64,000 bases of DNA from Candidatus Omnitrophota bacterium (lineage in GTDB: Bacteria > Omnitrophota > Gorgyraeia > Zapsychrales > JANLHA01): positions 72,189 through 136,188 of the forward strand of contig JAKQKX010000090.1 in assembly GCA_029560465.1 (NCBI GenBank). Reading direction: 5' to 3'. The notes under the pieces were generated by a model that did not search any database, had not been told where the DNA came from, and saw only the letters and a list, made by a program, of their open reading frames with translations. This document shows positions 5,127 through 50,277 of the stretch, one piece after another. The translations under genes and the position numbers were made by a program. Every line of letters starts with the position of its first letter. Within the stretch, counting starts at the first letter, position 1.

Positions 5127-6545
5127 TTAATATCTATAATGCTCGGGCTTATAAGGACCTTCTTGAGAAACCCCGATATATTTCGCCTGTTCGGGAGTTA
5201 ACACGGTCAATTCGGCTCCCACATGCGCCAAATGCAAACGGGCGACTTCTTCGTCAAGGTCTTTAGGAAGGCGGTACACATCCACCGGTTTACGGTTAGA
5301 CCAAAGATCCAGCTGGGCTAGGACCTGGTTGGTAAACGAGTTGCTCATAACAAAAGACGGATGCCCGGTCGCACAGCCCAAGTTCACCAACCGCCCTTCC
5401 GCCAGGATGATAATGGACTTTCCGTTCGGGAAACAATACTCGTCCACCTGGGGTTTAATATTGATCTTCTTGATCCCCGGCCATTTATCCAATTTGTTCA
5501 TCTGGATTTCATTGTCAAAATGCCCGATGTTGCACACGATGGCTTTGTCTTTCATCTTAGACATATGCACCGCTGTAATCACGGAACAGTTCCCGGTGGC
5601 TGAAACATAAATATCCCCGATATCCAGGACGCTCTCAATCCGCTTGACTTCAAATCCTTCCATGGCGGACTGCAAAGCGCAGATGGGATCAATTTCCGTG
5701 ACAATCACCCGCGCGCCGTAACTGCGCATGGACCGGGCGCACCCCTTGCCCACATCGCCGTAACCGCACACCACGACGACCTTCCCGGCGATCATGATAT
5801 CCGTGGCCCGCTTGATGCCGTCGGCCAAAGATTCCCGGCAACCATAAAGGTTGTCGAACTTGGATTTCGTCACCGAATCGTTCACGTTAATGGCGGGAAA
5901 AAGCAGCTTGCCCTCCTGGACCATCTGGTAGAGGCGATGCACGCCCGTTGTGGTTTCCTCAGAAACTCCCCGGATATCCTTAACCGCCCGGTGCCACGTC
6001 TGAGAGTCCTCCGCCAGGGTCGCTTTCAAAGAGGCCAAAAGCTCACGCTCATCTTCAGCGTCAACTGTCTTTTCAAGAATGGACGGGTCGTTTTCCGCCT
6101 CATACCCCATATGGACCATCAACGTCGCGTCTCCCCCATCGTCAACAATCAGGTGGGGGCCCTGCCCGTCGGGGAAGGATAGCGCCTGCTTCGTGCACCA
6201 CCAGTAATCTTTCAGGTTTTCCCCTTTCCAGGCGAACACCGGCACGCCCAAGTCGGCGATCGCCGCAGCCGCGTGGTCTTGGGTTGAAAAAATATTACAG
6301 CTGCACCACCGCACATCCGCGCCTAAGGCCGTCAAAGTTTTGATCAAGACCGCCGTCTGAATCGTCATGTGCAGGGAGCCGGTGATGCGGGCCCCTTTAA
6401 ACGGCTGCTGTTGCGCGTATTTCGCCCGGAGCGCCATAAGCCCGGGCATTTCAAATTCCGCCAACTCTATTTCCTTATGACCCCAAGCCGCCAGGCCTAT
6501 GTCCTTAATTTTGTACTCCTGAGACATCGCTGTCATTGATTTCAT
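5127..6545 (-). CDS. ahcY: adenosylhomocysteinase
   Basis: The 472-aa product carries the NAD-binding motif [17 protein letters not shown] and conserved SAHH blocks along its full length. Confidence 0.9.
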
Positions 6546-6617
6546 AACCCCCTCACTTCTTTATCAAAATACCTCTCTTACATAAATAATCACTCTGGAG
6601 CTGGGACTGGACACAAA

Positions 6618-7781
6618 CTACACAGCCACCAGCGCCTCTTTCTTGAGGACCGCGGCTTTGTCGGTCTGCTCCCAAGAAAATTCCTTCCGGCCGAAATGCC
6701 CGTAAGCCGCCGTTTTCTGGTAAATCGGCTGCAGAAGATTTAACTGTTTGATAATCCCCCGGGGGGTCAAATCAAAATGTTTGCGGACCAAATCGACAAG
6801 TTTCTGCTCCGGAACCTTCCCGGTCCCGAACGTATCAACCATGACGCTGACCGGCTCTGCCTTACCGATGGCGTACCCCAACTGAATCCAGCATTTGTCT
6901 GCCAGCGCGGCAGCCACGATATTTTTAGCCACATACCGCGCCATATATGTTGCGGAACGGTCCACCTTGGTCGGGTCCTTCCCGGAAAAAGCGCCTCCGC
7001 CATGGGAAACGATCCCGCCGTAAGTATCCACAATGATCTTCCGCCCGGTCATCCCTGTATCTGACTGCGGGCCGCCGACCAGAAATTTGCCTGTTTCGTT
7101 CACATAATATTTTGTATCCCTATCAACCAGGTCCTTTAAAACCGGCAAAGCGATGGTTTTTATAATTTCCTGCTTGGACTCTTCCGTGATCCTCTTGCCC
7201 GTCTTATCAAGAATTTTGTCAGTATGCTGACAGGCCAGGACGACCGCATCCACCCTCTTAGGAACGCCATCACAATATTCCACCGTGACTTGACTCTTGC
7301 AATCCGGCCCCAAGTAATCCAGTTCCTGGCTCACCCGAACATCCGAAATCCTTCTGACAAGGTGATGCGCCAGCATGATCGGCAGGGGCATCAGTTCTGG
7401 CGTTTCATCGCACGCGTAACCGATCATGATCCCTTGATCACCGGCCCCTCCGGCGTCCACCCCCTGGGCGATATCCGGGGACTGGCTGTTAATCGCATTC
7501 AAGATCGAACAGGTCTGCGCGCTAAACCCGTATTTGATATGCGTATACCCGATCTCCGACAGAACCCGACGGACAAGATTCTGGACTTCAATATAAGACG
7601 TCGTGGTGATTTCCCCCCCGACGATGACAAGCCCCGTGGTGATAAATGTTTCGCAAGCCACACGCCCCGCTGGATCATTCTTAAGCACGCTGTCCAAAAC
7701 CGCGTCAGAAATCTGATCGCAAACCTTATCAGGATGCCCCGCCCCAACGGATTCAGAAGTAAAAAAATATTGTCCTTTCAC
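6618..7781 (-). CDS. metK: S-adenosylmethionine synthetase; GTG start
   Basis: The 387-aa product carries [24 protein letters not shown] and the [16 protein letters not shown] motif. It sits immediately upstream of ahcY on the same strand, forming a methyl-cycle operon. Confidence 0.9.
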
Positions 7782-8703: not shown

Positions 8704-10467
8704 TTAGGCTTTATCCGCGGTATATATCTGCGGAACCAATTCCTGCAACCGGGCTTTGCTTAACTCCTCAACTTCCTGCCCTGAAGAAAGGGTCAACGCC
8801 CTCTGGGATAACTCCTGGGCGTCTTTCCGATTAATGCTACGAATCAGTTTCTTGATCTGCGGGATATTCAAAGGGGACATGCTCAGTTCATCCACCCCCA
8901 ATCCGATCAGCAAAAAGGCCTGAATCGGCTCTGAAGACATTTCTCCGCAAAGACCGACAGGGATATTCTCCTGATGGCCGGCGTCGACAACCATTTTGAT
9001 AAGCCGCAGGATCGCCGGATGGCAGGGTTCGTAAAAATTGGCCAGCTGCTCATTACGCCGGTCCACCGCTAACGTGTACTGAATCAGGTCATTCGTTCCG
9101 ATACTGAAAAACCGGACTTCCTTGGCCAGCAGATCCGCGGTCACGGCGGCCGAAGGGACCTCGATCATGGCCCCGACTTCAATATTTTCGTCGAACCCGA
9201 TCCCCTCCTCCCGCAAATTTATTTTCACTTCATTTAAAATGGCATTGGCCTGCCGCATTTCACTGGGCCCGGAAATCATCGGGTACATAAGCCGGACTTT
9301 ACCAAAAACCGAAGCGCGAAGGATCGCCCTTAACTGTGATTTAAAAATATCCGGACGGGCGAGGCAGAACTTAATCGCCCGCCATCCCAGGAAAGGAGAC
9401 ATGTCCCTTGGAATCTGCACGCTGGAAATAAACTTATCCCCGCCCAAATCCAAGGTCCGGATCGTCACGGCCAAAGGCGCCAGGTGTTCGGCCACTGCCT
9501 TGTAAGCGACAAATTGTTCTTCTTCCGAGGGAAGATCAACCCGGTTCATGAAAAAATACTCCGTCCGGTACAATCCAATCCCCTGAGCCCCTGACTGCCG
9601 AATCATCGGAATTTCTTCCGGGAGTTCCAGATTAGCCAGAATCGGGATAGGGCATCCATCCGAGGTCTTGGAAGGGAGGTCAACAATGTCATCAAAACGG
9701 TGGCTCAGGGCCGAAATACGCTTTTTCTCGGTATTGTAAATTTCAATAGTTTTCTCGGTAGGGTGCGCGATCACCAGCCCCATCCGGCCATCCACGATCA
9801 GGAGGTCCTGATTGCTGATCCGCAAGGTGGCATCTTTGAGCCCCACGACCGCCGGCACCCCCAAAGATTTGGCCATAATCGCGGTATGAGACGTACGCCC
9901 CCCGATATCCGTCGCGAAAGCCAAAACGTTTTTGTTAAACATCGTCACAGTATCCGACGGCGAAAGGTCATGCGCAATGATAATCATCTCCTCATCGATA
10001 TGGTCCAGGTCGTGCAGTTTTTGTTCGTCCGTAAGGTTTTTAAGAAGACGGCGGCCGATATCATTCACGTCACTGCTGCGTTCCCGCAAATACTCATCCT
10101 GAATACTGGAGAAAATTTTGCTGTACTTCTTTAAAACCACCATAAACGAGTATTCTGCCGACTGTTTCTCCTTCTTAATCCGCTTGATCACCTCTTCAAT
10201 GAGCATACGGTCTTCCAGGACGAGCAGGTGAGCGTCAAAGATCTGGCCGTGCTGCCCATCCATTTCATGGCTGATCTTTTTTTTCAGTTCGGAGATCTCT
10301 TCCCGCGTTTTGATCAGGGCTTCTTCAAAACGGGCAATTTCGATAGGGACCTCCTTGTCCATGATAGCGCGGGGCGGCACGATAAAATCCTGTTTATCGA
10401 TAATGTAAGCCGGCCCGATCGCAATCCCCGGCGCGGCCGGGATTCCTTTTAAAACAATTTCATTCAT
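8704..10467 (-). CDS. ptsI: phosphoenolpyruvate-protein phosphotransferase (PTS Enzyme I)
   Basis: The 587-aa product has a PEP-utilising mobile-domain motif GGRTSHTAIMAKSLGVPAVVG with the catalytic His. It has an EI N-terminal domain and a C-terminal PEP-binding TIM barrel. Confidence 0.9.
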   Translation of the reverse strand: MNEIVLKGIPAAPGIAIGPAYIIDKQDFIVPPRAIMDKEVPIEIARFEEALIKTREEISELKKKISHEMDGQHGQIFDAHLLVLEDRMLIEEVIKRIKKEKQSAEYSFMVVLKKYSKIFSSIQDEYLRERSSDVNDIGRRLLKNLTDEQKLHDLDHIDEEMIIIAHDLSPSDTVTMFNKNVLAFATDIGGRTSHTAIMAKSLGVPAVVGLKDATLRISNQDLLIVDGRMGLVIAHPTEKTIEIYNTEKKRISALSHRFDDIVDLPSKTSDGCPIPILANLELPEEIPMIRQSGAQGIGLYRTEYFFMNRVDLPSEEEQFVAYKAVAEHLAPLAVTIRTLDLGGDKFISSVQIPRDMSPFLGWRAIKFCLARPDIFKSQLRAILRASVFGKVRLMYPMISGPSEMRQANAILNEVKINLREEGIGFDENIEVGAMIEVPSAAVTADLLAKEVRFFSIGTNDLIQYTLAVDRRNEQLANFYEPCHPAILRLIKMVVDAGHQENIPVGLCGEMSSEPIQAFLLIGLGVDELSMSPLNIPQIKKLIRSINRKDAQELSQRALTLSSGQEVEELSKARLQELVPQIYTADKA

Positions 10468-22286: not shown

Positions 22287-22637
22287 TTATTCTGCTTTTT
22301 TGAAATTCTCAATCCTGTTTCGCATACTTTCCTCATGCTGCTCATCCGTATAGTTCGGGTCTTTCAGGTCTCTCCATAATTGGCAAGGGATTTCTGGACA
22401 CCTCCCGCAATGATTAATTTTCTTTTTATCAATCACGCAAGCGTAAATCGGACAAACGGTAGCAGAAATATAACTGGCCCACCAAACTTTGCCTTTAATT
22501 TTAAAACATCCGGAGCACTCGGATTTCTTTAAATATTCACAGTCCGAACATACACAACCGCAGACCGACAACTCTTTATTCATGTTTTTCCTTTTCTCTA
22601 AATTCTCATGAAGGATAAAAATCCACCGGCGGAGCAA
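22287..22637 (-). CDS. DUF3795-like Cys-rich protein; probable true start at the internal Met MNKELS near 22583
   Basis: CGCVCSDCEYL ... CSGCFKIKG ... CPIYAC ... CGRCPEIPC is the cysteine pattern typical of DUF3795. Confidence 0.5.
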   Translation of the reverse strand: MLRRWIFILHENLEKRKNMNKELSVCGCVCSDCEYLKKSECSGCFKIKGKVWWASYISATVCPIYACVIDKKKINHCGRCPEIPCQLWRDLKDPNYTDEQHEESMRNRIENFKKAE

Positions 22638-44924: not shown

Positions 44925-45641
44925 CTACAGGGCCCCTTCCCCGGAGACCTGGGCACTTCCCCGAAAAAGATATCCCTTATTCCCTATCAGAGACTGCACC
45001 CGGTCCATCTCTTCCTGAATGGCAAGCTGTTCTGCCTCATCATCAGCGACAAGGACTTTCATCCTTTCCTGGACAGAGCGGATCCGGATTTTCGCTTTTT
45101 CCAGGGTTGCCCGCGCCTCATCCAAAGTCGCCCAAGAAAGAGCCCCTTGCGGCAAGCCCGGACCCGCATTCCCCTCTTTTCCCGGGGCATCCTGGATTTC
45201 TTGTTCTTTGAGTTGAAAAATAGATTGCTGCAGATGGACAAGCCGGTTCATAAGTAAAATTTTATCCCGTAGCTGCAAATTTTCTTCTTTAACCTTGTTC
45301 AGCCAGGTGTCCTGATGCGCCACCGCCTGCTCCAAATCCTTCAATTGACGGATTAACCGTTCGTTTTCAAAAAGAAGGTGTTGATGTTCCAACTGATAAC
45401 CCTGATATTCATCCCGGCTCATCCCCATCATCCCGATCGGCTTACGCAAAGACACCCGATGATGCTGATAGAAGACACCTCCAAGGACACACAAAAAAAA
45501 CAAAGCGGCCGTTCCCAGGGAAATAATGCGTTTGTTGCTCATTTCAGGATTTTCTCCTCTTCCGTCCCCTGTTGATTCATCATGCCGCGCTAAATCCTTT
45601 ACGCCGAACACCTGCCAGAAGATATAATTCTGCCAGGACAC
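44925..45641 (-). CDS. membrane-anchored coiled-coil protein; probable true start at the internal Met MSNKRIISL
   Basis: The product has a TM helix (LGTAALFFLCVLGGVFY) and a long heptad-like region. No family was recognised. Confidence 0.4.
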   Translation of the reverse strand: MSWQNYIFWQVFGVKDLARHDESTGDGRGENPEMSNKRIISLGTAALFFLCVLGGVFYQHHRVSLRKPIGMMGMSRDEYQGYQLEHQHLLFENERLIRQLKDLEQAVAHQDTWLNKVKEENLQLRDKILLMNRLVHLQQSIFQLKEQEIQDAPGKEGNAGPGLPQGALSWATLDEARATLEKAKIRIRSVQERMKVLVADDEAEQLAIQEEMDRVQSLIGNKGYLFRGSAQVSGEGAL

Positions 45642-45674
45642 GACATCCTTTATCCGTCTCCCTAAACAAAAATA

Positions 45675-47291
45675 TTATCGCAAGGAAGACGGGAAAGTGC
45701 GGTCGTAGAAACCTTGATCCCGGGCCTTGTCCCTAAGCCGCCGCATTTGCTCTTTAGCCTGGTTCGCGATGTCCGAATTCCGCGCTGCGGCGCTATCCAG
45801 CATCGCCCTGGTGTCCTGGACAGTATAATTTCTTTGCTGAATACCGGCGGCCGTGGATGACGGGCGCGTGGGTGGCGTGGATGACGGGCGTGCGGATGAC
45901 ATGGATGACGAGCGTGCGGATGGGGCATGGGCCTGCCGGTTATTGTGCTCAACACGGATCCCCCGGGCCCGCCCCGGGAGGCCCTGGCGATTCTCCCGGA
46001 CAATCCTCGCAAGACTGTTCCCCAAATCCCGTTGGCGTTGATACGTATCATCGCTGGCCAGCAAATTCTCCTCTAAACGGCTCAAAAGTTCCGACTGCTT
46101 TTTCTTGATCGCCTCCAGTGGGGCCATATCCGTTTGCCCATCGGCTCCGAGGGACAGCCCCTTGGCATGATTCATCTGCCATTCCAGCATCTTCTGTTTT
46201 TCATCCAACCGCCTTAAATTTAATGCCAAATTTTCCAAGACCACATCGTATTCGAACAGAAGGTCTTTATATAAAATATTAATTTCCTCAACGCCAAGGT
46301 CCGTCACCTCCACCAGTTGAGTGCTTAATTGTTTCAAATCACCCTCGATGCGCTGATTGTGCTGTTCCAAAAATTGTTCACTCGCGGTATAATTCTCCGC
46401 TGCCATATAATATTCTTGGGATAAACTTTTAATAACGCCTTTCAGTTCATTCACGTCAGCGGCCAATTCCTCACCTCCGGCATGAAGAATTTTCTGCGCC
46501 AGCTCTTGCGCCTGTTGCGGATCCGCATTCAGGCATTCCGCCGGATCCGGGTTCTCACAAAACGATTGGAACTGTTCCGGATACCGGTCCTGAATCGTGG
46601 TTAAAATATTTCTTAAATGATTCTTCAGGCGTTGAGCCTCCCCATCAGCCCCTCCTCCTTCCGCCTTGAACAGCTTCCCCATGCTTTCCTCGGCTTTAAG
46701 GAGCTGTTGGGTTCTTTCCGCCGGATCCTCTGTCATATAGGCCTTGGCCATCTGAACCGCCATTTCTTTTAATTCAGGGAATTCTTCCAAAAACTGGGCC
46801 TGTTCTTGTGAAAGGGCTTCAGCATAAGTGCCCGCCTCTCGCAACAACTGATTATTAAGGGAGGAAAGTTCGGCCAAAATCTCCTGCCGCTTCTTGATCA
46901 GGGCGCCTCTTTCTTTATAAAGAGCGTCATAAGTCTCCTGAAGGCGCAGCAAATACTCCTGGATATTAACCGTATCCTCTTCGCCGGTTATCCGGGAGGT
47001 GCGTTCCCGGTCTTGCGCGTATTTGCCGAAACGGACAAAATCAATAAGCTGGCTCACTGGGCCGATCTGCCCCTGATTGGCCAAATGCCGCTCATAAACA
47101 TAAATCCCTGTCGACATAAGAAAAACTAAAACAATAATTATCGTGCGCGCGAATATCATAATTTCAGAAGCAAAAATTATAAAAATTACGGTTCCCCTAA
47201 AGGGGGCTTTAATAAGGGGCCCTTCACCTTTTGGTTTTATTTTGATAGTTTTCACGACTTTCGTCAAGTCATAAAACCACCAATCATCCAT
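45675..47291 (-). CDS. membrane-anchored coiled-coil protein with a C-terminal Ser/Pro/Thr/Ala-rich repeat; start moved to the Met of MDDWWFYDL
   Basis: The ORF-track N-terminus (to 47348) would run through the upstream terminator T-tract, so the Met at about 47291 is preferred. The product has a TM helix, then about 350 aa of coiled coil. The C-terminal tail carries 8-aa repeats encoded by a 24-bp tandem repeat. Confidence 0.5.
   Translation of the reverse strand: MDDWWFYDLTKVVKTIKIKPKGEGPLIKAPFRGTVIFIIFASEIMIFARTIIIVLVFLMSTGIYVYERHLANQGQIGPVSQLIDFVRFGKYAQDRERTSRITGEEDTVNIQEYLLRLQETYDALYKERGALIKKRQEILAELSSLNNQLLREAGTYAEALSQEQAQFLEEFPELKEMAVQMAKAYMTEDPAERTQQLLKAEESMGKLFKAEGGGADGEAQRLKNHLRNILTTIQDRYPEQFQSFCENPDPAECLNADPQQAQELAQKILHAGGEELAADVNELKGVIKSLSQEYYMAAENYTASEQFLEQHNQRIEGDLKQLSTQLVEVTDLGVEEINILYKDLLFEYDVVLENLALNLRRLDEKQKMLEWQMNHAKGLSLGADGQTDMAPLEAIKKKQSELLSRLEENLLASDDTYQRQRDLGNSLARIVRENRQGLPGRARGIRVEHNNRQAHAPSARSSSMSSARPSSTPPTRPSSTAAGIQQRNYTVQDTRAMLDSAAARNSDIANQAKEQMRRLRDKARDQGFYDRTFPSSLR
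45844..45915. repeat. tandem repeat, about 3 copies of a 24-bp unit (GGATGACGGGCG(C/T)G(T/C)GG...)
   Basis: The repeat was read directly in the sequence, in frame within the 3' end of the 45675..47291 CDS. It encodes SARSSSMS / SARPSSTP / PTRPSSTA. Confidence 0.7.
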
Positions 47292-47328
47292 ACGCCCCCG
47301 GCTTCCCTGGTGGCGTTTCTTCCCCGTC

Positions 47329-47362
47329 AGGAAAACAAAACCCCCCACTTTCTTGTGGAGGG
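47329..47362 (-). terminator. rho-independent terminator downstream of the 47412..47858 gene
   Basis: On the minus strand an 8-bp stem (CCCTCCAC / GTGGGGGG, one mismatch) with a 6-nt loop is followed by TTTTGTTTTCC. Confidence 0.5.
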
Positions 47363-47411
47363 TTTGAATGACTCAATCCTGGAAGGAAAAGAAATATATG
47401 ATTTCCAAATT

Positions 47412-47858
47412 CTAACGGTTTCTTTGCTGCATATCTCTCAATTTTGCCTGCATATCCTGGATGCGCTGCTGTTGCATCTCATTTTTAGCCCGGACATCCT
47501 GCATCCGGTATTTGATTTCCTGATTTTTCTGTTCCATATCTTTGATCTTTTGTTCCGCCAACTGCTTATTTCTTTCAATCAAATCACGCATCCGCTGTTG
47601 AGACATTTCATTCTTATCCTGCATGTCACGAATCCGCTGTTTCTGGGATTCAATTCTCGCCATTAAATCCTTGATGCGCAACGCGGCATCCTGGCTTTTC
47701 ATCCTGATCACCTGAGTAAAATTTTGCGTATTTGTTGAACTTCCTCCGCTCTCGGTCGTCTTCTTCTCACTCTGCTGCGCGGTCGTTGTCTGCGCCCAAA
47801 CCGGGGTGCTGAAAATGACCCATACCGCAGCTAACATACATACTTTCTGAAGGCTCAT
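47412..47858 (-). CDS. secreted low-complexity coiled-coil repeat protein
   Basis: The 148-aa product has a signal peptide (MLAAVWVIFSTPVWA), a T/S-rich linker and about five 11-14-aa repeats of the form (R/I)(I/M)xDMQ(D/A)KN(E/Q)MxQQR. Confidence 0.5.
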   Translation of the reverse strand: MSLQKVCMLAAVWVIFSTPVWAQTTTAQQSEKKTTESGGSSTNTQNFTQVIRMKSQDAALRIKDLMARIESQKQRIRDMQDKNEMSQQRMRDLIERNKQLAEQKIKDMEQKNQEIKYRMQDVRAKNEMQQQRIQDMQAKLRDMQQRNR

Positions 47859-47992: not shown

Positions 47993-49504
47993 TTATTCAA
48001 CCGCTTCCAAATCCTGTTGAGAAAAAACATCCGCCGTGAAAATCTCGATCTGAATCTTGGGGTCTTTCCAGGCATCAGGCGGCAATCCGGCTTTATGCGC
48101 GCACAGGTTTGATAAAAACTGCTCCCGGTTCCAACCGGTTTCCGTGGCCACCTGCGGGAGAAAAACCCCCTGATGAAATATTCCCTTGCGCACAATCACG
48201 CCGTGCGTCCCCATTTCAATCTCACGGACATCCCGGCATCGGCGCGGCTGGGATAAAACCGATATCTCTATGTCCAACTGATCCAGTTCCTCCTTTGTCA
48301 CAGCCGGAAAACGGGGGTCCTGGGTGGCGGCCGCGATCGCCATATCCCGGACCGTAAGATACAACGGCCCCCGGGCGACAATATTCCCAATACAGCCACG
48401 CAGGGCTTTGCGTTTATGCAGGGTCACAAACGCCCCTTCTTCCGCCGAAAGGCGCGGGTCAGTCTCCTGAAAACTCATAACGGTCCCGTTAAGGATATGG
48501 TCCTGAATTGTCTTGCGGGCGATCTCAATCAACCGGGCCTTTTGCCCGCGGGTTAACGGGGCGACGCCCTCTGGCGTGCCCGCCTCTTTCTGAAGGTCGT
48601 CCTTTCCCGCTTTCATCGCTCCCCCCGGCTTATAAAACAGGATAGACGTGTACCCCACGACGCGGCCCTTGTCCCCAGACACATCCCCGGAATTGGCGTA
48701 TTTCAACACCTGGGGCTTAAGCCCCCGCTTCCGGGCCAAGAATAACGCGGCGGTCACCGGGTGCGACCCGCACATTTCAAATTCACGGGAGCTCGTTTTT
48801 GTCCAAAAGTCCTCCAACGCCAAATTCTCAATCGCCTGAATCGTCCTTCGATCCTTGTCCCGTGCGGTTCTGTCATCATGATAATGCGACATGTCAGAAC
48901 TCACCACGATCAAAACGTCCTGGCGATCTCCGATCAAGGCATCAAGGCTGTCGGCGAAGGACTCGCAAAGGTCCTTACCGGGCTGCCCAAAAATCACGGG
49001 AACGATCTTAAAATCCTTAAATGTTTTTTGCAGAAACGGCAGATGAACCTCAAGGGCATGCTCACGGTCAAACGCCTGCGGGGCATTGATAAAGGCTTCA
49101 TTTTTCTCAAGCAATTTGGCGGCAAACTCACTGTCAACCGGAATATCGCCTAACGGGGTGGTGAAGGCCCCCTCCTTCCAGATGGACACTCCGTCAAAAG
49201 GATAATGATGGCTGGGAGAGATGACAACAATTGTGCGGTATGCCTTGTGGCTCAAAGCCTTGTAGCCGTAAGCGGCCACGCCTCCGGAATACACATAACC
49301 AGCGTGAGGAGCGATCAGGATAAGCGCCTCCTTATCCGTCGGGGCGACATCCGCCTCCTTAAAAAACTGGTCAATATCAGCCGCGAGCCGGCCGGGGTTT
49401 GCGCTATAAAACTGGCCGCTGACATTCGGCTGTTTTATATTGTTACCATGAGCTCCGGGAGTCATAAAAAAAAATACCCACAATAATATAATAACGGTTT
49501 TCAT
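47993..49504 (-). CDS. fusion of AmmeMemoRadiSam system protein B (Memo-like) and protein A (AMMECR1 domain), with an N-terminal signal peptide
   Basis: The product is 503 aa. The N-terminal half matches Memo/extradiol-dioxygenase-like proteins (GQFYS ... ILIAPHAGYVYSG ... SSDMSHYH). The C-terminal half matches AMMECR1 (GAFVTLHK ... LRGCIG ... FLPQV). The first 20 aa (MKTVIILLWVFFFMTPGAHG) look like a cleavable signal peptide. Confidence 0.75.
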   Translation of the reverse strand: MKTVIILLWVFFFMTPGAHGNNIKQPNVSGQFYSANPGRLAADIDQFFKEADVAPTDKEALILIAPHAGYVYSGGVAAYGYKALSHKAYRTIVVISPSHHYPFDGVSIWKEGAFTTPLGDIPVDSEFAAKLLEKNEAFINAPQAFDREHALEVHLPFLQKTFKDFKIVPVIFGQPGKDLCESFADSLDALIGDRQDVLIVVSSDMSHYHDDRTARDKDRRTIQAIENLALEDFWTKTSSREFEMCGSHPVTAALFLARKRGLKPQVLKYANSGDVSGDKGRVVGYTSILFYKPGGAMKAGKDDLQKEAGTPEGVAPLTRGQKARLIEIARKTIQDHILNGTVMSFQETDPRLSAEEGAFVTLHKRKALRGCIGNIVARGPLYLTVRDMAIAAATQDPRFPAVTKEELDQLDIEISVLSQPRRCRDVREIEMGTHGVIVRKGIFHQGVFLPQVATETGWNREQFLSNLCAHKAGLPPDAWKDPKIQIEIFTADVFSQQDLEAVE

Positions 49505-49989
49505 AAATTTTTTGCTTCAAAATACCGGTCAAGGCTCATACAGGACGTCTTGGAAAAATATTTTAAGAGTCCCCCGACAGCCAGAAATAATCCCATATCG
49601 AGTAATATACTAACATGAAGCGGGAGAGAAAGCAACTCACCGTAACAGCCGCAATCCTGCATCGGCAGTTTCCGGAGGACCGCCTGAGTTAGCATAATAA
49701 TGAACGCGCTGATCATGAGCAGCGAAAGCCGAAGCACCGGTTTAAGCCATAAACCTAACACCAGAAAAACCCCCAGGAAGAACTCAACCCAGGGAACGAT
49801 CATCGCTGCGAAACGGGCCAGGAATGGGGGAAGAATGTCGTACCCCTGAATGACATAAAAGAAATTTTCATAAGGGGCCAACAGCTTTTCAGCGGCCACA
49901 ACCACAAAAAACCCCCCGATAAGAACCCGGGCAACAACATGAATATGACAGGACACTTTCATAGACATATGGACAGGGCCGTGGAACAA
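49501..49989 (-). CDS. DoxX/MauE-like integral membrane protein with a CGC motif
   Basis: The product has four predicted TM helices. A C-terminal MQDCGCYGELLSL motif is present. It overlaps the start of the Memo-AMMECR1 gene by 4 nt. Confidence 0.5.
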   Translation of the reverse strand: MFHGPVHMSMKVSCHIHVVARVLIGGFFVVVAAEKLLAPYENFFYVIQGYDILPPFLARFAAMIVPWVEFFLGVFLVLGLWLKPVLRLSLLMISAFIIMLTQAVLRKLPMQDCGCYGELLSLPLHVSILLDMGLFLAVGGLLKYFSKTSCMSLDRYFEAKNL

Positions 49990-50277
49990 GGAACAAAATC
50001 CAGCCCTTTATTTCAACTGATAATCCAGCATATCTTTTAAAGCTTTTGTGCCAACAAACATCTGGCCATTCACAAAATACGTCGGGGCCGAGTTAACCAT
50101 TTCCCCTGACCTTGGGCCTTTGATTCTCTCACCAAAGCCAAAGTACGTTCATCCTGGCGGCAGGACTCCAGTAATTTTTATTAAGACCCGCTGTTTCGGC
50201 AATTTGAATTCAATACTGTTCTCGATCCGGACTTTCTTTCCATTCCTGATACGGGGATTGGGAATCTTTAAAAAACC

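Follow-up and report, generated by a model that had tools for sequence, protein, structure and literature searches.

A predicted exported Memo-AMMECR1 fusion protein beside a MauE-family membrane protein in a Candidatus Omnitrophota genome

A 64,000-nucleotide stretch of a Candidatus Omnitrophota genome (hereafter, the window; part of the 85,022-bp contig Ga0116242_10000508 of the Joint Genome Institute [JGI]) encodes on its reverse strand a 503-residue protein that joins Memo and AMMECR1, components B and A of the AmmeMemoRadiSam system, behind a predicted export signal, and whose gene overlaps that of a MauE-family membrane protein. We consider it probable that this locus is the remnant of an envelope operon of three genes, namely, a decayed DsbA-like gene, MauE, and the exported Memo-AMMECR1 fusion, and that it belongs to an extracytoplasmic family of AmmeMemoRadiSam systems.

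Memo and AMMECR1 are conserved from archaea to humans, and AMMECR1 is linked to an X-linked syndrome; MEMO1 has been linked to cancer cell motility. We know of no biochemical reaction for either protein. AMMECR1 ranks among the top-priority uncharacterized archaeal families (PMC6393860). The apparent export of a very large set of B-A fusions narrows the search for a substrate to molecules of the envelope (proteins, lipids, or quinones), not nucleic acids, and exported fusions beside disulfide-forming or reductant-importing proteins offer simple genetic handles in the form of leader fusions and of dsb or tat mutants. The surprising part lies at the level of the family, where apparently periplasmic Memo and AMMECR1 domains, together with a radical S-adenosylmethionine (rSAM) enzyme that seems targeted to the twin-arginine (Tat) pathway, make localization and redox dependence directly testable; a Tat-exported rSAM enzyme, if true, raises the question of where S-adenosylmethionine (SAM) and low-potential electrons in the periplasm would come from. 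The window itself is more modest: its locus is an ordinary, typical member of its clade and of a very large set of exported B-A fusions that spans several phyla, its MauE is explained, and its DsbA partner has decayed.

RESULTS

Both domains of the fusion are intact in sequence

The open reading frame (ORF) of the fusion starts with ATG and encodes Memo followed by AMMECR1, the B+A order of AmmeMemoRadiSam (Table 1). In searches against Pfam, Memo matched residues 26 to 288 (221 bits; E value, 1.9e-65) and AMMECR1 matched residues 327 to 494 (193 bits; E value, 3e-57). Against NCBIfam, TIGR04336 (protein B) aligned from profile position 1 to 270 of 270 with residues 24 to 290 at 284.7 bits (cutoff, 26), and TIGR04335 (protein A) aligned with residues 324 to 494 at 185.6 bits (cutoff, 99). 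With both scores far above their cutoffs, the 503-residue Memo-AMMECR1 fusion proposed in an earlier, sequence-only reading of the window is borne out. The observations on the fusion and on MauE are not due to chance, since the profile E values range from 1e-20 to 1e-85, and the public JGI gene call on the source contig gives a fusion product and start identical to those of our ORF.

Residues H67, H99, D204, H207, C245, C371, and C468 of the fusion are invariant among 34 homologues, and they include the two histidines (H67 and H99), the Asp/His pair (D204 and H207), and the cysteine (C245) that characterize the Memo metal site. H67, H99, and D204/H207 sit in motifs common with human MEMO1 in a printed alignment that ends before C245; this last residue we take, from motif similarity, to be the equivalent of the MEMO1 cysteine. 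In the AMMECR1 domain, the motif LRGCIG occupies residues 368 to 373 (C371), the second motif is C468-x-x-KAGL, and the domain aligns with the archaeal structures 1vaj, 1zq7, and 1wsc, in which both cysteines are kept. Both catalytic domains are intact in sequence, with all family-defining residues retained. The idea that the fusion carries cysteines forming export-specific disulfides was dropped, because its conserved cysteines also occur in cytoplasmic archaeal AMMECR1.

The leader of the fusion behaves like a signal peptide

Profile coverage of the protein begins at residue 24, so that residues 1 to 23 form an extra leader, composed of MK, TVIILLWVFFFM, and TPGAHG ahead of NN. By heuristic counts, this leader fits a Sec signal peptide for signal peptidase I (SPase I), with a lysine at position 2, a 12-residue hydrophobic h-region, and small residues at positions -3 and -1 in A18-H-G20. 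We also examined it for a lipobox (L-[AS]-[GA]-C) and for a twin-arginine motif; it contains no Cys and no RR.

We then anchored the N termini of 155 homologues that have a full-length start on the conserved K of the KxPNVSGQFY motif. The resulting profile has K/R at positions -23/-22, hydrophobic residues at positions -21 to -12, S/T/P at -10 to -8, A/S/G at -7, G/S/A at -5, and D/E at -4. An uncharged stretch of 9 or more residues (range, 9 to 20; mode, 12 to 13) is present in 153 of the 155 proteins and is preceded by K/R in 148, and a small-x-small site lies 2 to 4 residues before the IKxPNVSGQFY motif in relatives. The letters of the leader vary freely among homologues while the features of its n-, h-, and c-regions persist, which argues that it is a signal peptide rather than a miscalled start or a domain. 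We strongly infer that the fusion is exported via Sec. The secretion signal and the periplasmic placement advanced in the sequence-only reading both fare well: the leader looks like a genuine export signal, its architecture being kept in almost all homologues, and a periplasmic location of the fusion is well supported by this conservation.

Within the signal peptide lies a second methionine, Met14 (49463-49465); of 71 loci, 52 have a Met 7 to 11 residues ahead of the predicted cleavage site, and 57 of the 155 homologues have one at leader profile position -11. Gene calls in databases start at this conserved internal Met in 31 of 120 cases, thereby losing the hydrophobic core, and a core resembling a Shine-Dalgarno sequence precedes it in only 2 of 52 loci.

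Predicted export signals are the rule among fused B-A proteins

The closest proteins are named Candidatus Omnitrophota and form at least 120 clusters (90% identity) that are 53 to 99% identical to the window fusion; all 120 are Memo+AMMECR1 proteins of about 470 to 550 residues. Beyond these, a search of 1.84 billion cluster representatives returned 3,678 relatives with E values of ≤1e-30, from which we drew a diverse set, namely, the best 150, as representatives of 50%-identity clusters that are 37 to 57% identical. All of these best 150 are of fusion length, bar a few truncated entries; a hydrophobic leader is present in 112 of the 137 that could be anchored, and many have a lipobox (e.g., ...LLAAC ahead of SSQ). 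The leader-bearing relatives include Elusimicrobiota and Deltaproteobacteria. In all five metagenome loci (5/5) where Memo and AMMECR1 are separate genes, Memo has no leader. A predicted export signal is the rule for the fused B-A form and is not peculiar to the window.

A second scan, for which the query was an alignment of 30 diverse fusions with leaders (reference, an Elusimicrobiota sequence), covered metagenome contigs and yielded 80 loci, 44 with a TIGR04337-like rSAM gene beside the fusion and 36 without an adjacent rSAM gene. We classed the N termini of 40 near-complete rSAM genes beside these fusions: 25 carry a twin-arginine (Tat) motif (e.g., SRRRFLK, SRRDFLK, NRRDFLK, or DRRSFLK) followed by a hydrophobic stretch, 6 have a hydrophobic leader without RR, 7 are leaderless, and 2 fall into none of these classes ("other"). 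Three of the RR-bearing rSAM proteins score 364 to 384 bits on TIGR04337, and one also passes the TIGR01409 Tat-signal model. The Tat motifs were found on the rSAM partners, not on the fusions, and in the two loci with a leaderless fusion the rSAM protein, too, is without an export leader (one leaderless and one "other"). A leader of K/R and about 20 hydrophobic residues, lying before the start of the family profile, is present in 114 of the 120 closest TIGR04337 proteins of Omnitrophota. A widespread form of AmmeMemoRadiSam looks extracytoplasmic, with a putative Sec-exported or lipoprotein B-A fusion and an Fe-S rSAM enzyme bearing a predicted Tat signal. The premise of the sequence-only reading, that the triad normally consists of three cytoplasmic proteins, fails for the fused form, in which most B-A proteins from several phyla carry Sec or lipoprotein signals and the adjacent TIGR04337 proteins have mostly Tat or hydrophobic leaders.

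Loci with Tat-signal rSAM genes include L089, L093-L095, L097, L099, L101, L112, L115, L122, L123, L127, L132-L134, L139, L142, L144, and L164. The leaders of the Omnitrophota rSAM proteins often read ...AC-FYLPxIxA[QED] and are Sec-like or anchor-like, without RR (P0121-P0240; L065, L068-L070, L074, L076, L078, L079, and L081-L083). A literature search on exported AmmeMemoRadiSam or AMMECR1 proteins and on Tat-signal rSAM enzymes found no description of them; Burroughs et al. 2019 (JBC), which is said to be the main comparative paper on Memo-AMMECR1 contexts, was outside its scope.

The membrane protein upstream is a MauE-family protein

The longest ORF of the membrane protein (49501..49989, reverse strand) encodes 162 residues from a TTG; the public gene call has 153 residues from an ATG at 49962. 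The protein matches Pfam MauE (PF07291) at 73.2 bits (threshold, 27) and DoxX (PF07681) at 23.1 bits, just under the threshold of 23.6; its orthologue in L001 clears DoxX at 26.8 bits, and MauE and DoxX are related families that match the same stretch. There are four hydrophobic segments, whose charge distribution, judged from hydropathy only, predicts both termini inside (N-in/C-in) and loop 2 inside. CGC occupies residues 113 to 115 of 162 in the loop that joins hydrophobic segments 3 and 4 and is followed by YG (CGCYG, residues 113 to 117); this loop is not net positive and so is predicted to lie outside. CGC is invariant in 49 of 49 aligned MauE homologues (consensus, LPxxxCGCFG), and E34-K35 in helix 1 and P66-W67-x-E69 in helix 2 of the window protein fall in conserved columns.

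According to a 2026 preprint (10.64898/2026.03.05.709764), MauE from two phyla (the Caldithrix and Desulfatibacillum proteins) complements Escherichia coli dsbB; a CXC, usually CGC-FG, on the periplasmic loop that links helices 3 and 4 forms the active site and was required in experiments; close to a predicted quinone site, helix 1 has a conserved Lys and helix 2 a conserved Glu; and MauE is a generalist DsbB-like disulfide generator that is not bound to methylamine dehydrogenase. The window MauE has all the sequence features of the published MauE and, as judged by these, is a member of a kind of protein that is now understood. The sequence-only reading had described a four-helix DoxX/MauE-like protein ending in CGC: the MauE assignment and the CGC hold, the C-terminal position of the CGC does not, and DoxX falls just short of its threshold. 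The role in periplasmic disulfide and redox maturation that it ascribed to MauE-type proteins agrees with the DsbB-like oxidase and periplasmic CXC of the preprint, and the 4-nucleotide overlap that it reported is the ATGA formed by the MauE stop and the fusion start. The same 4-nucleotide overlap recurs in many of the related loci.

DsbA-like and MauE genes precede the fusion in most related loci

In a species-level scan (one genome per GTDB species), we found at least 589 encoding stretches and kept the best 80 loci with 10-kb flanks, almost all of them from Omnitrophota metagenome-assembled genomes (MAGs). In 48 of these 80 loci, the gene immediately upstream of the fusion, in the same orientation, encodes a MauE orthologue, and 47 of the 48 have a DsbA-like gene directly ahead of MauE. 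The complete chromosome OY759724.1 (L003) carries this DsbA-MauE-fusion operon with a fusion 72% identical to that of the window; MBP7162286.1 and HQP11447.1 are 83% identical. The DsbA-like gene, which the sequence-only reading overlooked, encodes in the relatives a protein of 200 to 220 residues that is anchored at its N terminus, contains CPAC, resembles DsbA in its C-terminal part, and matches the Pfam families Thioredoxin_4 and DSBA. Compared with the intact 200-residue genes of L001 and L002 (relatives with 83% identity), the DsbA-like gene of the window has a gap of about 386 nucleotides in tblastn and blastn, by which the N-terminal anchor and CPAC are deleted. No intact thioredoxin-fold partner was found next to the window MauE, only a frameshifted C-terminal remnant without CPAC; a copy elsewhere in the genome is possible. 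The decayed DsbA gene is the only peculiarity of the window locus within its clade.

Other loci have lost other parts. DsbA and MauE are both lost in L007, L010, L024, and L039, with the fusion kept, and L033 and L049 lack MauE and have a DsbA-like gene (9256-9891 and 6535-7161, respectively) immediately ahead of the fusion, the mirror image of the window. An unrelated gene, pckA, is a conserved upstream neighbor in 19 loci. Outside Omnitrophota, MauE seldom accompanies the fusion, being directly adjacent in 1 of 80 loci and about 1 to 2 kb away in 2 others. A MauE-like gene is found about 1.2 kb upstream of a leaderless rSAM gene and an exported fusion in L114 (5037-5561) and L141 (5050-5574), both outside the Omnitrophota DsbA/MauE clade.

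An rSAM gene and DsbD_2 accompany the fusion in a sister clade

In the window, the only ORF of at least 100 residues with CxxxCxxC is an unrelated 116-residue ORF (22287-22637, reverse strand), a small Cys-rich sequence (CGCVCSDCEYLKKSECSGC...) that is too short for an rSAM enzyme. A hidden Markov model built from 120 Omnitrophota TIGR04337 proteins had no match in the 64-kb window, and no called gene matched Pfam Radical_SAM at record positions 8044-85022 of the contig (77 kb), which extend 6.4 kb past one window end and to the contig end past the other. The absence of an rSAM gene within about 10 kb that the sequence-only reading reported holds for the window and for these 77 kb, including the sequence just outside the window.

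The picture differs in 8 of the 80 loci of the species-level scan, whose fusions are 45 to 47% identical to that of the window and in which an rSAM gene lies directly upstream of the fusion, in the place of MauE. These adjacent Omnitrophota rSAM proteins score 374 to 382 bits on TIGR04337 (cutoff, 220), and the fusions beside them carry the same type of leader. A DsbD_2 gene (PF13386) follows the fusion in six of these eight loci. Two more look-ups with rSAM homologues gave loci with the gene order rSAM, fusion, DsbD_2/CcdA-like membrane protein, rsmE, and MiaB-like gene (L081-L083), all three of which have DsbD_2 after the fusion; no DsbD_2 was found in the window or in any of the DsbA/MauE-linked loci. 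The MiaB-like gene of L081-L083 encodes an rSAM methylthiotransferase. DsbD_2 directly follows the fusion in L068, L069, L070, L074, L078, L079, L081-L083, L087, and L092.

A neighbor-joining tree built from the mature parts of the fusions splits cleanly into clade A (rSAM and DsbD_2) and clade B (DsbA and MauE, including the window). The rSAM gene is directly upstream in 8 of 12 clade A loci, and no TIGR04337 gene was found within 10 kb of the fusion in any of about 68 clade B loci. Loci without either module nest inside clade B; some of them are at contig edges and others are secondary losses, with pckA abutting the fusion. The clade B pattern is compatible with an rSAM gene elsewhere in the genome or with its loss. 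A comparison of the GenBank accessions of proteins from 10 fusion clusters and 10 rSAM clusters turned up no shared MAG and is uninformative on linkage.

A PflA-like rSAM gene in L007 (10893-11948, reverse strand) was considered as a partner and rejected: it scores only 31.6 bits on Radical_SAM, an AsmA-like gene lies between it and the fusion, and it has no homologue in the window. The encoded protein has a Tat-like SRKDFLK leader, and the gene is 3.5 kb from the fusion; L007 is the closest outgroup of the window's subclade.

TABLE 1 Coordinates in the window of the fusion gene, its parts, and adjoining features
Feature	Coordinates	Strand	Basis
Memo+AMMECR1 fusion coding sequence (503 residues)	47993..49504	-	ORF, Pfam, NCBIfam, public gene call
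Memo (LigB-superfamily) domain, residues 24-290	48635..49435	-	TIGR04336; invariant residues
AMMECR1 domain, residues 324-494, LRGCIG (C371) and C468-x-x-KAGL	48023..48535	-	TIGR04335; archaeal structures
Predicted Sec/SPase I signal peptide, residues 1-20, MK/TVIILLWVFFFM/TPGAHG, cleavage after A-H-G	49445..49504	-	Profile starts; conserved architecture
ATGA overlap of MauE stop and fusion start (translational coupling)	49501..49504	-	Sequence; many related loci
MauE-family (DsbB-like) four-helix protein coding sequence, 153 residues; longest ORF to 49989 from TTG	49501..49962	-	Pfam, public call, hydropathy, synteny
CGC, predicted redox-active CXC site, periplasm-facing loop of helices 3/4	49645..49653	-	49/49 conservation; preprint active site
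DsbA-like thioredoxin-fold pseudogene remnant between pckA and MauE, codons ~121-200, three frames, one stop	50008..50248	-	tblastn/blastn against L001 and L002

Other genes of the window

Three genes downstream of the fusion (44925-47858, reverse strand) have homologues only in the three to four closest relatives. One of them (47412-47858) encodes a 148-residue secreted Q/K/E-rich coiled-coil protein; the other two encode proteins of 557 and 238 residues that are, by eye, coiled-coil or membrane associated. A strong promoter-like site at 47945-47917 (11 of 12 matches) suggests that these three genes are a separate transcription unit; counts in the promoter and terminator scan of the window were near the shuffle expectation. 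About 40 kb from the fusion, genes for SAM synthetase (MetK) and adenosylhomocysteinase lie side by side (5127-7781, reverse strand) as ordinary housekeeping genes.

DISCUSSION

In the explanation that we favor, the window holds the remains of an envelope operon whose exported product is the Memo-AMMECR1 fusion. MauE, by analogy, would be a quinone-linked counterpart of DsbB that generates disulfides with its CGC loop facing the periplasm; it would use quinone to oxidize a DsbA-type partner, which in this organism, if there is one, would be encoded elsewhere in the genome. The fusion would be translated in step with MauE through the ATGA overlap, its leader would direct it into the Sec pathway with probable cleavage after Ala-His-Gly20, and the Memo and AMMECR1 domains would do their work in the periplasm. 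There, the exported protein, which has three conserved cysteines, would depend on thiol-redox support in the envelope. Such dependence is suggested because two nonhomologous redox modules abut the fusion, namely, the DsbA/MauE pair of clade B and the DsbD_2 of clade A.

Several points weigh against this explanation. The export of the fusion is read from conserved features only, and the linkage of MauE to the fusion may in part reflect a gene order passed down within a single phylum. In the window, the DsbA partner is decayed, and several members of the clade have neither DsbA nor MauE. C245, C371, and C468 are found throughout the family, the cytoplasmic archaeal proteins included; they are more likely to be catalytic, needing a reduced state, than to be sites of structural disulfides, in which case the reducing DsbD_2 would fit better than the oxidizing DsbA/MauE. 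A leaderless rSAM gene sits beside an exported fusion in six loci (L109, L111, L114, L117, L141, and L149), so that the two proteins need not share a compartment; in these loci, the rSAM enzyme could act on the fusion, or on its substrate, before export. To our knowledge, there is no source of SAM or of low-potential reductant outside the cytoplasm, and an exported rSAM enzyme is biochemically awkward. A wider scheme, in which Memo-AMMECR1 would, in much of the bacterial world, be periplasmic and dependent on envelope thiol-redox supply, a Tat-exported rSAM enzyme would do its chemistry outside the cytoplasm, and the clade of the window would have become rSAM independent by losing the rSAM gene and DsbD import and replacing them with quinone-linked DsbA/MauE, seems to us doubtful.

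The narrower claim that the exported fusion of this clade is independent of any rSAM enzyme, as the sequence-only reading suggested, with rSAM and DsbD_2 replaced by the quinone-linked DsbA/MauE pair, is one that we take seriously and yet lean away from. It draws on the lack of a TIGR04337-like gene in the window, in 77 kb of the contig, and near the fusion in clade B, versus its presence in most clade A loci, as well as on the mutual exclusion of the rSAM/DsbD_2 and DsbA/MauE contexts on the tree; eukaryotes, as far as we know, have Memo and AMMECR1 without a TIGR04337 rSAM enzyme. The absence, however, is local, and 10 kb on each side or even 77 kb says little for a genome of about 3 Mb; nonadjacency is common, given the 36 of 80 diverse loci without an adjacent rSAM gene; and NCBIfam defines its models as belonging to a three-component system. 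The claim is weakened further by the sister clade with its rSAM gene and by the Tat-signal rSAM enzymes. A stronger contender, if still a little short of probable, is that the adjacency of MauE and the fusion has no specific meaning, the DsbA/MauE pair being a housekeeping module of oxidative folding that inherited gene order has left between pckA and the fusion. The conservation of the unrelated pckA in 19 loci points this way, as do the scattered losses of DsbA and MauE (four loci), of MauE (L033 and L049), and of DsbA (the window), in all of which the fusion is kept, the rarity of the arrangement outside Omnitrophota, and the report of MauE as a generalist DsbB replacement (10.64898/2026.03.05.709764). 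Under that explanation, it would be hard to see why the 4-nucleotide overlap persists across fusions that are only about 50% identical, or why the nonhomologous DsbD_2 abuts the fusion in the sister clade, L087, and L092, a convergence of two modules that is unlikely to come about by drift alone.

Two further alternatives concern the N terminus of the fusion. That its hydrophobic stretch is no export signal at all, and reflects either a miscalled start or an uncleaved anchor at the cytoplasmic face of the membrane beside a tethered rSAM enzyme, is in our judgment very improbable. The database calls that start at the internal Met (31/120), the anchor-like N termini of about 20 residues on Omnitrophota rSAM proteins, and the inability of Fe-S enzymes to fold after Sec export could be cited for it, but an in-frame leader with n-, h-, and c-regions is found in 153 of 155 full-length ORFs despite free sequence variation, its hydrophobic run of mostly 11 to 13 residues is too short to span a membrane, and small-x-small sites lie at a fixed distance from the domain. 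Relatives from other phyla have unambiguous lipoboxes, it is the upstream ATG that is coupled to the stop codon of MauE, and a Shine-Dalgarno-like core seldom (2 of 52 loci) precedes the internal Met. This last count also tells against dual localization, whereby Met1 would give an exported form and the conserved Met14 a leaderless cytoplasmic form able to meet a cytoplasmic rSAM enzyme. The enrichment of Met 7 to 11 residues before the cleavage site (52/71 loci, and 57/155 homologues at -11) is unusual for a c-region, and gene callers often pick this Met; the Met may, however, simply be a favored c-region residue, dual localization has no experimental precedent in the family, and we regard it as unlikely.

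Of the known systems, AmmeMemoRadiSam (TIGR04335/TIGR04336/TIGR04337) is the one to which the window protein itself belongs by its domain scores, far above the cutoffs, and by the family residues that it keeps, and fusions in related Omnitrophota and in other phyla adjoin bona fide TIGR04337 genes. The window protein differs in being a B-A fusion with a predicted Sec signal, in having no rSAM gene within 77 kb, and in its thiol-redox neighbors of the envelope; in its relatives, the rSAM protein has a Tat signal or a hydrophobic leader, after which the family profiles start. The closest solved structures by sequence are human MEMO1 (3bcz/7kq8) and archaeal AMMECR1 (1vaj, 1zq7, and 1wsc), with E values of 8e-24 and 8e-33, respectively; unlike the fusion, these are separate, leaderless cytoplasmic proteins.

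The membrane protein of the window shares with the published MauE its four helices, the CGC-aromatic-Gly motif in the predicted periplasmic loop of helices 3 and 4, the Lys of helix 1, and the Glu of helix 2, and, in relatives of the window, the adjoining gene for a thioredoxin-fold partner. It has CGCYG instead of CGCFG, its adjacent DsbA-like gene is a pseudogene, and its translational coupling to a specific, putatively exported enzyme is outside the published description; complementation of dsbB was obtained with the Caldithrix and Desulfatibacillum proteins. In these relatives of the window, a membrane MauE and an anchored thioredoxin-fold protein with CXXC are encoded next to a putative periplasmic redox enzyme, which recalls MauD/MauE of the mau cluster (10.64898/2026.03.05.709764), although no mauA, mauB, or other mau genes are present, and the partner matches DSBA and Thioredoxin_4 profiles. 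Transporters of the DsbD/CcdA type (PF13386) likewise adjoin the exported fusion, DsbD_2 being the gene immediately downstream of it in the sister clade, L087, and L092; they supply reducing rather than oxidizing power, and the window has none.

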